Positions 11,675 through 54,862 of a DNA stretch of 64,000 nucleotides are shown here, piece after piece. The first letter of the stretch is position 1. Each line of letters begins with the position of its first letter. A program made the position numbers and the translations under genes. The notes under the pieces are model-generated. The model worked only from the letters and a program-made list of their open reading frames with translations. It ran no database searches and had not been told where the DNA came from. This DNA comes from Candidatus Falkowbacteria bacterium (lineage in GTDB: Bacteria > Patescibacteriota > Patescibacteriia > Patescibacteriales > UBA12075), in contig JAZDLN010000012.1 of the NCBI GenBank assembly GCA_043801965.1, forward strand, positions 11,115-75,114, read 5' to 3'.

Positions 11675-11703
11675 TGGACAAAATTTAAGAAATATGCTAT
11701 ATT
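11675..11703 (+). promoter_or_regulatory. sigma70-like promoter for the 11747-12318 cassette
   Basis: TGGACA, 17-nt spacer, TATATT. Confidence 0.5.
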
Positions 11704-11746
11704 AAAATGTTCCGCGAACTTTATAAAAAACAATAGGGGGTGACTC

Positions 11747-11989
11747 ATGTTTAAAAAATATTTGGTTTTTTGCGACCTGGGAATTTTGCGGGAAAACAGC
11801 CGCGAGATTCACGCGTTATCGGCCTCGGACGCGATCGATGAGTTTTTTGTGGAAAGCGGGTTATGCGAGGAGTATTACCCGCACGTCAAGGCGATTCCTC
11901 TCCCCGAGATGATGGGGTGGGGGGCGATCGCCAAATATTTTTTCATCAAAGATCCGTGGCTGAATATCTATTACGCCACTATCCAGTAG
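11747..11989 (+). CDS. hypothetical small protein (SD-led)
   Basis: 80-aa ORF preceded by GGGGGTGA 3 nt upstream of the ATG. First gene of a promoter/terminator-bounded two-gene cassette. Confidence 0.5.
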   Translation: MFKKYLVFCDLGILRENSREIHALSASDAIDEFFVESGLCEEYYPHVKAIPLPEMMGWGAIAKYFFIKDPWLNIYYATIQ

Positions 11990-12003
11990 AGAGGAGAAGG
12001 CCC

Positions 12004-12318
12004 ATGAAATGCGAAACTATCCGTCGGGGTTCCGAATGCGCGTTTATGACGCAAAAAGGCTGCGCTTATCCCGGCGGCGCTTGCCGGGAAATCGTCCCGT
12101 CCTGCCGGGGGTGCAACCGGGTAGTGGCCGTGGAAGCGGGCGAGTATTGCGACGCCTGCCCCGATCCGGCCAAAAAGTGGAAAAACGGCCTTTGCAACCT
12201 GGCCTCTAACGCCGCCCGCGTGATCGATCGGGACGGCAAAGGGACGGGCGGCGCGACCAATACTATGAAAAAAATTAACCCCCAGAAATCCGCCAAGCGG
12301 GCGGCGAAGGGGATGTAA
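12004..12318 (+). CDS. cysteine-rich small protein, putative metal-binding (SD-led)
   Basis: 104 aa from ATG 12004, preceded by GAGGAGAAGG. Ten Cys residues lie in the first 66 residues, including CRGC and CDAC pairs, followed by a Lys-rich tail. The listed ORF (11863) extends upstream into the previous gene. Confidence 0.55.
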   Translation: MKCETIRRGSECAFMTQKGCAYPGGACREIVPSCRGCNRVVAVEAGEYCDACPDPAKKWKNGLCNLASNAARVIDRDGKGTGGATNTMKKINPQKSAKRAAKGM

Positions 12319-12336
12319 ATCCTCGTTTAAAAAATC

Positions 12337-12369
12337 AACGGGTGTCAGCGGACGACGCCCGTTTTTTTT
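12337..12369 (+). terminator. intrinsic terminator of the 11747-12318 cassette
   Basis: AACGGGTG / CGCCCGTT stem (7 Watson-Crick pairs plus one G-U) followed by T8. Confidence 0.7.
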
Positions 12370-12377
12370 GTTATCGA

Positions 12378-12422
12378 CGTAGAGACGTTGTCATAAAGAC
12401 GTCGCAATGCAACGTCTCTACG
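12378..12422. repeat. GTAG-headed palindrome (REP-like candidate)
   Basis: Perfect 13-bp arms CGTAGAGACGTTG / CAACGTCTCTACG around a 19-nt loop. It begins GTAG and ends CTAC. Confidence 0.7.
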
Positions 12423-12547
12423 CCAGGGACATCCCTACGGGCGGGTATTTGCCTTTTTATGTTTAACCTTGTATAATAAACGTGTTTTACGAACTTTAAT
12501 GAAATTATAAGGATTAAGTTATAGATTGATTAATAAAATTTAAAAAT

Positions 12548-52724: not shown

Positions 52725-52760
52725 AATTTATCGGGTTTGGAGGCGGTACGATTTTTCATT

Positions 52761-52845
52761 ACAAATACACGAATAACGCACAAATTCACAAACAGCGCAT
52801 TTGTGAATTTGTGTTATGATTCGTGAATTCGTGATATGATTTTGT
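52761..52845. repeat. word-repeat hairpin spacer (CACGAAT/AATTCACAAA vs TTTGTGAATT/ATTCGTG)
   Basis: Left arm ACAAATACACGAATAACGCACAAATTCACAAA, loop CAGCGC, right arm ATTTGTGAATTTGTGTTATGATTCGTG... By eye, about 28 of 31 positions pair. It ends 6 nt before the murJ ATG. Confidence 0.8.
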
Positions 52846-52851
52846 TTTATT

Positions 52852-54552
52852 ATGATAAAACGTTTGTTTAACGGACAAATTAACAGCATAACCGGAGCGG
52901 CGCTACTTGTAGCGCTCTCTTCGCTTATAAGCCGTTTTTTAGGGGTATTCCGGGACCGCATTCTGGCCGGAGAATTCGGCGCGGGCGATACGCTTGATAT
53001 TTATTACGCGGCCTTCCGCGTTCCGGATCTAATTTTTAATTTACTGGTTTTAGGGGCGATATCGGCCGGGTTCATACCGATCATTACCTGTCTGATCAGG
53101 GACCCTCTGTGTAAGATCAGGACCATGTTCTCCGAATCTCCCAACCGCGAAGCCTGGGAGTTGGTCAGTAATATCTTAAACGCGCTCGGGTTGGTTTTAG
53201 TGGTGTTATCCGGCTTCGGAATTCTCTTCGCGCCTGGACTTACGAAATTGATCGCGCCGGGTTTTTCTCCGGAAAAACAGGCGCTGACCGTCGCGCTTAC
53301 CCGTATTATGTTCCTGTCCCCGGTATTCCTGGGCATATCGAGCGTTTTGGGCGGTGTGCTCCAGTCTTATAAGCGTTTTTTCGTTTATTCCCTGGCTCCT
53401 ATCATGTATAATGTCGGAATTATAGTCGGAGCGCTTTATTTTACTCCGCGGTGGGGGATTTACGGTCTGGCGTGGGGCGTCGTGTTCGGCGCGGCTCTCC
53501 ATATGCTCATACAGTTGCCGGCCGTTATTTCCCTTGGTTTCCGATACCGGCCGATTATCGATTTAAAAAACGCCAACTTCCGGAGGATCGCCGTCATGAT
53601 GCTGCCGCGGACCATGAGTCTCGGTATTTCCCAGATAAATCTGGTCGTCATTACGATAATCGCCTCGACTTTAGCGAGCGGATCATTGACTGTTTTTAAT
53701 TTTGCCAATAACCTGCAGTTTTTTCCGGTAAGCATATTCGGCATCTCTTTCGCCGTGGCCGCCTTCCCGGCATTGGCAGCGTCCGCTTTCGATAAGAAAA
53801 AACTCATAAGCGATTTTTCCAATATCTTCCGGCAAATCCTTTTTTTTATTATGCCGGCGGCTGTTCTTTTATTGACCCTGCGCGCTCAGATAATCAGGGT
53901 GATCCTGGGCACGGGCAGGTTTAATTGGGAAGACACGATCAGAACGATTGATACTCTGGGATTCTTTATTATTTCCCTTTTCGCCCAGACCGCTCTGCCG
54001 CTTTTAGTAAGGGTGTTTTACGCGCGTCATAATTCCAAAACCCCTTTTTATGTCGGTTTGATCGCGGCCGGGGTCAACGTTATTTTAAGTCTTTGGCTGC
54101 CCAAACTGACCTTTTGCCGGGAAATTTTAGGAGGCGGCGGAGAGATCGTAAACGAGTGTATGCCCTTGGGGGTAGCTGGTTTAGCACTGGCTTTTTCGAT
54201 AGCGAGTATCCTGAATTTTATATTATTATGGCTGGTTTTACGCTCCGAGATCGGTAATCTTGACGAAGCCAGGATACTCATTTCGACCATAAAATTTTCC
54301 GCCGCCGCCATAGCCGCCGGATTGGCGGTACAGGGCATGAAATTGGTTGTTTGGCCGTATATCGATATGACCAGGGTATGGGGGGTATTTACCCAAGGCT
54401 TCATTGCCGGAATGTCAGGAATTCTCGTTTATCTTGCTTTTTGTTCGCTTCTTAAAAGCGAGGAACTATTCGCTTTTTGGCAATCGTTCAGGAAGCGGAT
54501 ACCCTGGAAAAAAATCGATACCGGCGATCATACGGAGGCGAGAGGTGTGTAG
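52852..54552 (+). CDS. murJ: lipid II flippase MurJ (MviN)
   Basis: 566-aa polytopic protein. The N terminus SRFLGVFRDRILAGEFGAG...DIYYAAFRVPD is typical of MurJ. Confidence 0.9.
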   Translation: MIKRLFNGQINSITGAALLVALSSLISRFLGVFRDRILAGEFGAGDTLDIYYAAFRVPDLIFNLLVLGAISAGFIPIITCLIRDPLCKIRTMFSESPNREAWELVSNILNALGLVLVVLSGFGILFAPGLTKLIAPGFSPEKQALTVALTRIMFLSPVFLGISSVLGGVLQSYKRFFVYSLAPIMYNVGIIVGALYFTPRWGIYGLAWGVVFGAALHMLIQLPAVISLGFRYRPIIDLKNANFRRIAVMMLPRTMSLGISQINLVVITIIASTLASGSLTVFNFANNLQFFPVSIFGISFAVAAFPALAASAFDKKKLISDFSNIFRQILFFIMPAAVLLLTLRAQIIRVILGTGRFNWEDTIRTIDTLGFFIISLFAQTALPLLVRVFYARHNSKTPFYVGLIAAGVNVILSLWLPKLTFCREILGGGGEIVNECMPLGVAGLALAFSIASILNFILLWLVLRSEIGNLDEARILISTIKFSAAAIAAGLAVQGMKLVVWPYIDMTRVWGVFTQGFIAGMSGILVYLAFCSLLKSEELFAFWQSFRKRIPWKKIDTGDHTEARGV

Positions 54553-54610
54553 GAATTGCCGATTTATGATTGTCGATTTGCGAATTACGTATTAGATTGG
54601 AGTTTACAGT

Positions 54611-54639
54611 TTGACGGTTGATAACGCGTAATTTATAAT
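54611..54639 (+). promoter_or_regulatory. sigma70-like promoter for the 54687-54830 microprotein gene
   Basis: TTGACG, 17-nt spacer, TATAAT. Confidence 0.6.
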
Positions 54640-54686
54640 AAAGACAGGTTATTTTTTGAAGCCGAATATATATCCAGGAGGAAGCA

Positions 54687-54830
54687 ATGGTTAATAAAAT
54701 GCTTAAGCCTAACCCGGGCAAAAAGGGGTCTTATACGATCATCGTGAAAAAGGGATACGGCGTCCCGGACCGCTCTTTACTGGAAATCATCAAAGATATT
54801 ATCAGGGAAACTGATACAAAGAAAAAATAA
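54687..54830 (+). CDS. basic microprotein, 47 aa (below the ORF-track cut-off; SD-led)
   Basis: Hand translation gives MVNKMLKPNPGKKGSYTIIVKKGYGVPDRSLLEIIKDIIRETDTKKK. AGGAGG lies 5 nt upstream. It has its own promoter and terminator. Confidence 0.55.
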   Translation: MVNKMLKPNPGKKGSYTIIVKKGYGVPDRSLLEIIKDIIRETDTKKK

Positions 54831-54835
54831 ATGCC

Positions 54836-54862
54836 CCCATTCTCGTAGAATGGGATTTTTTA
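54836..54862 (+). terminator. intrinsic terminator
   Basis: CCCATTC-tcgta-GAATGGG followed by ATTTTTT. Confidence 0.75.

Follow-up and report, generated by a model that had tools for sequence, protein, structure and literature searches.

A 64-kb stretch of DNA (the window, 48% GC) from a tiny-celled groundwater bacterium, a Candidatus Falkowbacteria member of the Patescibacteria, or candidate phyla radiation (CPR), was analyzed, and 60 genes were curated in it. These genes start in two different ways: the core genes lack a Shine-Dalgarno (SD) sequence, and a set of mostly small genes carries a strong one. We favor the reading that SDs identify hsp20 and a flexible pool of genes with kinship to those borne by phages, with initiation in the rest of the genome being SD-independent, and we give it a probability of roughly 55%. 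No tRNA and no Rfam family was detected in the window. Its SecA is closest to proteins of CPR/Patescibacteria metagenome-assembled genomes (MAGs), including Kerfeldbacteria and Magasanikbacteria, with 52–61% identity. The sibling referred to below consists of two loci (L081 and L175) of the Falkowbacteria RIFOXYC2_FULL_46_15 type, which have approximately 88–95% nucleotide identity to the window.

SD strength was scored as the duplex energy (dG) of positions −20 to −1 against the canonical 16S tail ACCUCCUUA, which stands in for the genome's own 16S; 16S and ribosomal protein genes were found neither in the window nor in the related loci (160 loci were checked for 16S). The prfB frameshift site, an indirect probe of the anti-SD, was seen only in non-CPR loci adjoining secA and was uninformative for CPR. 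The dG distribution across the 60 genes was bimodal. Fifteen genes formed the strong class (dG −8.7 to −13.5 kcal/mol), with starts at 11747, 12004, 17218(−), 17427, 18306(−), 29050, 29607, 33701, 41731(−), 42005(−), 43074(−), 43484(−), 48634, 48857, and 54687. The other 45 comprised one gene at −7.6 and 44 at −5.9 or weaker, with 34 at −2 or weaker. The background showed that 2.6% of 1,556 non-start ATGs reach −8.7, against which 15 of 60 genes give a binomial p of 3.5 × 10−11. A preliminary description of this DNA had proposed the two regimes, and the bimodal energies and the binomial excess bear them out. Core starts were even less SD-like than non-start ATGs (76% versus 39% at dG −2 or weaker, p = 3 × 10−8), and 13 of the 23 strong SD-like motifs in intergenic DNA sit 3–9 nt 5′ of the ATG of an open reading frame (ORF) of at least 47 amino acids (aa). 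The upstream sequences quoted in that description were found at all 16 listed starts. Three starts of its minus-strand four-gene operon were correct; the fourth gene starts at 41731 (SD AAGGAGGAG), not at 41815. The gene at 45732(−), which was said to have a weaker AAAGGA, does have a weak SD (dG −5.6).

The 45 SD-less genes lie between 507 and 63826. They include holB, frr, rseP, hpf, secA, secDF, proS, mreBCD, PBP2, hrcA, grpE, dnaK, dnaJ, htrA, an ABC system, trx (thioredoxin), pfkB, acs, murJ, pgk, a pilin gene, and eno. The last gene of the window is a putative gpmI, a label carried over from the preliminary description. The starts quoted earlier for secA, frr, mreB, dnaK, eno, and acs were correct, and Pfam backed the gene identities. 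The SD-less starts have 2–11% G at most positions from −15 to −1, 51–64% A at −6 to −2, 64% U at −1, and A-rich codons 2–5. The sequence AAAAAU stands directly 5′ of the AUG (−6 to −1) in 7 of the 45, and the consensus is a G-depleted, Kozak-like AAAAAU-AUG-AAA. Operon-internal genes (mreB, 20610, 47640) show the same A-rich, G-poor context as first genes. The CPR loci gathered via SecA had a median dG of approximately 0 to −2.5, versus 43–87% SD-led genes in Firmicutes control loci scored in the same way. Of the 61 protein families that occurred in three or more related CPR loci, 55 had no SD-led member. As read from these loci, the SD poverty of core genes is a trait of the lineage.

It is very unlikely that the SD-less genes are simply leaderless, with a −10 box approximately 7 nt upstream of the ATG, and that only leadered mRNAs need an SD. 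A few core genes look leaderless. At holB (6950–6975), TGTTATAAT ends 6 nt before the ATG at 6973, and at the minus-strand UvrD-like helicase (31891–31915), TGGTATAAT ends 9 nt before the ATG at 31891. However, many SD-less genes are operon-internal with gaps of 3–25 nt (mreB, 20610, 47363, 47640, 56134, 56701, 62237), and several SD-less first genes, namely secA, proS, hrcA, and 43761, have good promoters with leaders of 27–70 nt. The promoter of hrcA is a perfect 12/12 match (TTGACA-16-TATAAT). The leaderless regime (GeneMarkS-2 group C) was rejected as a general account on the promoter positions and the operon-internal genes.

The SD-led units, together with two weak-SD units of similar build, are listed below. 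Promoter scores are matches out of 12 to the sigma-70 consensus, and "TG" marks an additional TG motif.

11675–12363 (+), Unit A: inserted between hpf and secA; promoter 11675–11703 (TGGACA-17-TATATT with TG, 10/12); SD-led 80-aa ORF 11747–11989; SD-led 104-aa Cys-rich ORF 12004–12318 (DUF6811/PxxKW); terminator 12337–12363.
16753–17299 (−), Unit B: promoter 17299–17270 (10/12); SD GGGGAGGA; 140-aa gene 17218–16796; at the 3′ end, approximately 16753–16775, a hairpin with a T-run, read by eye as a putative bidirectional terminator.
17320–18078 (+), Unit C: promoter 17320–17348 (11/12); 78-nt leader; SD GGGAGGGG; gene 17427–18038 for a 203-aa predicted lipoprotein; terminator 18051–18078.
18133–18380 (−), Unit D: promoter 18380–18352 (11/12 + TG); SD AAGGAGGG; ORF 18306–18133.
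28928–29468 (+), Unit E: promoter 28928–28956 (11/12 + TG); 93-nt leader; SD AAGGGGAGGA; 123-aa Cys-rich ORF 29050–29421, present in the sibling with 92% aa identity; bidirectional terminator 29446–29468.
29477–30050 (+), Unit F: cassette of approximately 570 bp; promoter 29527–29555 (10/12 + TG); SD AAAGGAGA; 120-aa ORF 29607–29969; terminator 29997–30015.
33640–34135 (+), hsp20 unit: long hairpin 33640–33686 upstream; SD AAAGGAGGT; gene 33701–34135, within the hrcA-grpE-hsp20-dnaK cluster.
41426–43568 (−), Unit H: four-gene SD-led operon; promoter 43568–43540; PTH2-like gene 43484–43089; homoserine-dehydrogenase-like gene 43074–42031; 87-aa ORF 42005–41742; ORF of approximately 101 aa 41731–41426.
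45549–45805 (−), Unit I: promoter 45805–45778 (11/12 + TG); weak SD AAAGGA; 51-aa Cys-rich ORF 45732–45577; terminator 45571–45549.
48634–49060 (+), gene pair: ORFs 48634–48855 (73 aa) and 48857–49060 (67 aa, Cys-rich) at the tail of an SD-less ABC-auxiliary operon, without a promoter of their own.
49071–49355 (−), extra unit, absent from the preliminary description: promoter 49355–49326 (TTGACT-18-AATAAT); weak SD AAAGGA; 61-aa hydrophobic ORF 49263–49078; terminator 49090–49071.
54611–54862 (+), Unit K: promoter 54611–54639 (11/12); SD CAGGAGGA; 47-aa ORF 54687–54830; terminator 54836–54854.

An independent scan recovered the promoters that had been listed for Units A to F and K. The weaker one of Unit H was found by manual scoring (TTGACA-17-TAATTT with TG) and not by the scan. 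Most of the terminators were confirmed, namely those after 12318, 18038, 29421, 29969, 45577, and 54830. The median promoter match to the sigma-70 consensus was 11/12 in the SD-led units versus 9 in the core units (p = 0.0035). Units C, E, F, I, and K each consist of a single gene with its own promoter and factor-independent terminator, placed between conserved genes. In Unit H, the bidirectional terminator between htrA and the operon (41491–41518) falls within the 3′-terminal part of the last ORF, whose sibling version is shorter (71 aa) and 60% identical; the C-terminus of ORF 41426–41731 is therefore uncertain.

The SD-led units interrupt conserved gene order. In relatives, hpf, secA, and secDF are adjacent (hpf adjoins secA in loci L011 and L005). 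In the window, genes 11747 and 12004 lie between hpf and secA, and a 3-kb island (15384–18306) follows secA. In relatives with approximately 70% nucleotide identity, hrcA directly follows PBP2 and the ABC ATPase gene directly follows htrA, which makes the UvrD-like helicase lineage-specific, along with the four-gene SD operon and the 29050 and 29607 units. Unit H was found in the sibling and is missing from more distant relatives. Several cassettes of the preliminary description come and go between siblings, and the 29607, 45732(−), and 48634 units are missing from the sibling at approximately 90% identity. The 29607 cassette, which sits right after the preceding terminator, is precisely absent from promoter to terminator in L081, with 7 bp in its place. 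At the position of Unit I, L175 has 37 bp versus 265 bp in the window. Gene 48857 is replaced in the sibling by a strongly diverged, still SD-led homologue. The post-secA island opens (15384–16684) with a 242-aa ORF that has a sub-threshold match to IS200/Y1 transposases, followed by an overlapping NTP_transf_6 nucleotidyltransferase gene. Both are SD-less and absent from related loci.

The association between SD and accessory genes was also seen in the relatives. The comparison set consisted of the one 64-kb window and relatives' flanks of at most 10 kb picked around secA, hsp20, and two SD-led families; start codons in the relatives were simply placed at the first ATG. Of the 275 locus-specific genes (80 aa or longer) in 65 related CPR loci, 24 were SD-led, compared with 6 of the 529 conserved genes when hsp20 was left out (odds ratio 8.3, p = 2 × 10−7). 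In the window, 11 of the 15 SD-led genes had no Pfam match versus 8 of the 45 SD-less genes (p = 1.5 × 10−4). The tie between the SD and small orphan genes claimed earlier thus held in the window and in its relatives.

The SD-led genes are short, with a median of 104 aa versus 345 aa in the SD-less class. The annotated ones are hsp20, the PTH2-like gene, the distant homoserine-dehydrogenase-like gene, and the Cys-rich PxxKW/DUF6811 gene (12004–12318), for whose product only two close homologues were recovered. Among the other products, several are rich in Cys or are predicted to be lipoproteins or membrane proteins; the Cys content was 2.4% in the SD-led and 0.9% in the SD-less class (p = 0.054). 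The preliminary description had called the set small orphans apart from hsp20, Pth2, and the homoserine-dehydrogenase-like gene. The 11 genes without a Pfam match fit this wording, but the 140-aa protein of Unit B belongs to a CPR-wide family and is not an orphan. No function common to the SD-led set was found, and no motif common to the promoters or untranslated regions (UTRs) of its units. Known anti-phage defence systems were rejected as an identity, PADLOC models giving no match for 10 proteins.

Judged by their substitution patterns, the SD-led ORFs are real genes under purifying selection, and ORF 18306–18133 alone has poor coding statistics. This ORF encodes 57 acidic, low-complexity residues and has a synonymous codon score of −0.12, and its coding status is doubtful. 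The ratio of nonsynonymous to synonymous substitution rates (dN/dS) against the sibling was 0.09 (29050), 0.08 (PTH2-like), 0.23, 0.18, 0.42 (last ORF of Unit H), and 0.02 (hsp20). The SD was kept in every sibling orthologue, including hsp20, whose 5′ UTR has been replaced, and the diverged homologue of 48857. An artefact, in which chance SD-like motifs stand before spurious small ORFs and core starts are mis-called, is extremely improbable. Small ORFs are hard to validate, and 18306–18133 may be such a case. However, the binomial excess, the specific position of the motifs 5′ of starts, the purifying selection, and the SDs conserved in the sibling all speak against it, as do the homologues found for several proteins and the full-length alignments from residue 1 that support the core starts.

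Some SD-led families have relatives among phages. The closest non-sibling PTH2-like homologues on long contigs (45–51% identity) are found on contigs of 122–541 kb with 25–35% GC (L168–L171 and L172–L174). These contigs show small co-directional gene arrays in which 60–72% of genes have strong SDs, and on sequence grounds they are probably huge phages from groundwater. They also carry RuvC, PDDEXK, and a sigma-like gene. Both the PTH2-like and the 140-aa protein have distant homologues (31–38% identity) in phages of Enterococcus, Clostridioides, and Rhizobium and in an uncultured phage of 735 kb. A phage origin by direct matching was rejected on the finding of distant phage homologues only and no close viral matches. 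A location within a phage or prophage was rejected as well: the neighbours are housekeeping genes, and no phage structural or integration genes lie nearby.

Phage morons, a concept associated with Juhala et al. 2000 and Hendrix, are reportedly independent promoter-gene-terminator units inserted between conserved genes. The window units resemble them in being single small genes with their own promoter and terminator, placed directly after a terminator and variable among close relatives. Unlike morons, they are chromosomal, stand among housekeeping genes rather than in a prophage, and have native composition. Integron cassettes are likewise small, mostly uncharacterized single-gene units with high turnover, but the window units have their own promoter and terminator, and neither attC-like repeats nor an integrase was found. 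One repeated mobile cassette or integron was therefore rejected as an account. Since no boundary repeats or UTR sequence are held in common, the units are not copies of one mobile element.

The preliminary description had offered two explanations, namely recent acquisition from SD-using donors such as phage, plasmid, or host, and an SD-dependent special class such as stress or interaction genes. Neither fits alone. The first, taken as plain recent horizontal transfer from host bacteria, phages, or plasmids with the SD as a functionless fossil, is unlikely. In its favor, the units interrupt synteny, their presence is polymorphic with absences in the sibling, their promoters and SDs are E. coli-like, the PTH2-like and 140-aa families have phage relatives, and a weak IS200-like remnant lies beside the 15384–18306 island. 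However, no foreign composition was found. The SD-led and core genes did not differ in GC (p = 0.55) or in GC at third codon positions (GC3, p = 0.26; Mann-Whitney), the medians of the synonymous codon score were 0.089 and 0.090 (p = 0.42), and codon usage was native. The dN/dS values below 1, the SDs kept or re-created in the sibling, and the lack of close matches in viral collections also weigh against a recent, functionless import, as does the 140-aa family, which is widespread in CPR, SD-led wherever examined, and syntenic with secA.

This family deserves separate description. The 140-aa protein (16796–17218) is 100% identical to a Candidatus Falkowbacteria protein in NCBI, encoded on an 81-kb contig, and has at least 284 homologues with 50–64% identity; all organism-named ones are CPR. 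The gene was SD-led in 6 of the 6 lineages examined (Falkow-, Lloyd-, Pace-, Lipton-, and Niyogibacteria, and one further CPR MAG), with AAGGAGG in three, AAGGAG in one, and AGGAG in one of the five fetched contexts. Its neighbours there are SD-less, including suf, rpoD, dnaG, secA, hpf, and murB, and the other SD-led genes in these loci encode small hypothetical proteins. It adjoins secA in L163, L179, and L181 and lies approximately 1.4 kb beyond secA in the window, which makes four lineages. The structure model (predicted local distance difference test, pLDDT, 96) gave weak matches only, to nucleoside 2′-deoxyribosyltransferase, DNPH1, and TIR folds.

The hsp20 gene was SD-led in 24% of 49 orthologues, scattered over the set. 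Its leader in the window (33640–33712) has, directly 5′ of the SD, a long hairpin with a perfect stem, TTGACCGCGG...CCGCGGGTCAA, and in the predicted single-sequence fold a second, weak hairpin takes in the SD and the AUG (z = −3.1). As modelled, these hairpins may act as an RNA thermometer or as an operator. A leader of the form "hairpin-GTTTTA-GGGAAGA" is common to many hsp20 orthologues. The long-term upkeep of SDs on specific genes is shown by the 140-aa family and in part by hsp20.

The special-class explanation thus fits the 140-aa family, in which the SD state is heritable, and hsp20 in part, and fails on the missing common function and regulatory motif. In a fuller form, it would be a dedicated SD regulon for stress, dormancy, or host interaction, switched globally through the accessibility of the anti-SD, for example by ribosome heterogeneity. 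We hold this to be quite improbable. The SD state is conserved by family across CPR lineages amid SD-less neighbours, the 140-aa gene stays near hpf-secA in four lineages, the hsp20 SD outlived the replacement of its 5′ UTR, and core starts actively avoid SD-like sequence. There is also a precedent in Bacteroidia, where bS21 acts on rpsU in Flavobacterium (PMC9976891, PMC13000453). However, the set is functionally heterogeneous and mostly unannotated, its promoters and UTRs have no motif in common, roughly three quarters of the hsp20 orthologues are not SD-led, and several units are dispensable between siblings, unlike a core regulon. A combined scheme is slightly less probable still: Falkowbacteria and related CPR would have two initiation channels, an SD-independent one for the vertically inherited core and an SD-dependent one that selection maintains for a specific set and that would also serve as an entry port for genes from SD-rich CPR phages. 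The second channel would hold hsp20, the 140-aa family linked to secA, and small proteins that are Cys-rich or at the surface. How accessible the 16S tail is could control this channel as a whole, for example by ribosome heterogeneity or hibernation.

In the preferred reading, that of a flexible gene pool marked by its SDs, default initiation would be SD-independent, with a G-depleted, A/U-rich context at first and internal core genes alike. Core initiation would presumably proceed on unstructured mRNA and by re-initiation at short intergenic gaps. The anti-SD is presumably retained and accessible, since a minority of genes keeps canonical GGAGG-type SDs at 4–10 nt with position-specific enrichment and conservation. 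This minority would be largely the flexible genome, made up of short, fast-evolving, mostly uncharacterized genes between syntenic core blocks. Its typical unit would have a consensus promoter, a leader of 40–90 nt, an SD, an ORF, and a terminator, that is, the architecture of a phage moron, and units would come, go, and be exchanged over the time in which sibling species diverge. The likeliest source would be a gene pool circulating in CPR bacteria and their SD-rich mobile elements and phages. We speculate that portable, host-independent strong signals were kept because such genes need expression from any insertion site.

Several observations count against this reading. No SD-led protein had a close homologue in IMG/VR, and PHROGs matched the PTH2-like protein only. 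The 140-aa family linked to secA seems to be old and to have been passed on vertically, at odds with a flexible pool. Variable genes that are nevertheless SD-less exist, such as the UvrD-like helicase (30053–31891) and the TPR gene (36681–37718). The SD-led share is 25% in the window versus approximately 4–9% in related loci; those loci were centred on core-rich regions. Finally, about half of Parcubacteria are reported to be without the CCUCCU motif (PMC9297842).

The closest known likeness is the non-SD regime of Bacteroidia (GeneMarkS-2 group B; Flavobacterium johnsoniae and Bacteroides), in which, as in the window, core genes are SD-less with upstream adenines and little G at first and internal genes, and a few genes still have a strong SD (PMC6028130, PMC7797042, PMC9976891). 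Bacteroidia ribosomes are "blind" to the SD, as bS21, bS18, and bS6 sequester the anti-SD, and their SD-led set is tiny (rpsU, approximately 3% of genes; PMC6028130, PMC7797042, PMC9976891). The window belongs to another phylum, Patescibacteria, and approximately 25% of its genes have conserved SDs at optimal spacing, implying that the anti-SD can be used. SDs so abundant, conserved, and correctly spaced argue indirectly against blindness of the Bacteroidia type. In Parcubacteria, bS21 is often absent (PMC9297842).

Some CPR genomes have been published as SD-scarce, namely those of Wolfe-, Campbell-, Peregrini-, and Absconditabacteria (PMC9297842, PMC10783764). They belong to the same radiation as the window, and these reports concern the loss or variation of the 16S CCUCC and overall SD percentages; the text searched contains no bimodal split into an SD-less core and SD-led accessory genes and no Falkowbacteria. 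The literature found on SD usage and leaderless mRNAs in CPR held no paper with such a split. Partial-SD genomes offer a further comparison, and for these the cases considered were cyanobacteria and Caulobacter. We know of no report from either of a sharp gene-class split with near-zero SD in conserved families. These genomes (GeneMarkS-2 group X; 10.1101/2022.10.10.510831) likewise have a minority of SD mRNAs, with mRNA accessibility guiding starts, but differ from the CPR relatives, where 55 of 61 families are entirely SD-less.

CPR/Patescibacteria make up a large part of bacterial diversity, and gene expression there is almost unstudied. Gene callers trained on the initiation signal of one class will mis-start or miss the other if core and flexible genes differ in this signal. 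In thousands of genomes of uncultured organisms, the SD could also flag flexible genes, possibly ones for host interaction, at little cost. The contrast with Bacteroidia raises the question of whether ribosomes in which bS21 is often missing retain an anti-SD that is accessible and used by only a minority of mRNAs, and why the core avoids it.

Some SD-less genes showed further features. A tandem heptamer, (GTTAYGC)n with 2–5 copies, stands 8–30 nt upstream of the ATG of dnaK (34513–34534), the ABC-2 permease gene (44757–44788, with an inverted copy at 44694–44708), and acs (50789–50805, with a partial inverted copy at 50544–50557). There are 9 matches versus 0.28 expected, and the repeat likewise occurs upstream of dnaK in the sibling and of hsp20 in L107. 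Its role could be that of an operator, a translational enhancer, or an RNA-binding site. Two SD-less genes encode very large proteins, 1116–5027 (1,303 aa, SNase and lamin-tail domains) and 56701–60273 (1,190 aa, beta-helix and lipase/LCAT-like), which are probably surface or secreted proteins; the latter gene adjoins the type IV pilin-like gene 56134–56679. The N-terminal fusion partner of GrpE differs between the siblings: it is DUF1653 for the window's protein (32897–33538) and a NUDIX domain for that of L081 (8945–9820). Before dnaJ, the sibling carries an additional 23S_rRNA_IVP four-helix-bundle gene, and it is missing the TPR gene 36681–37718.

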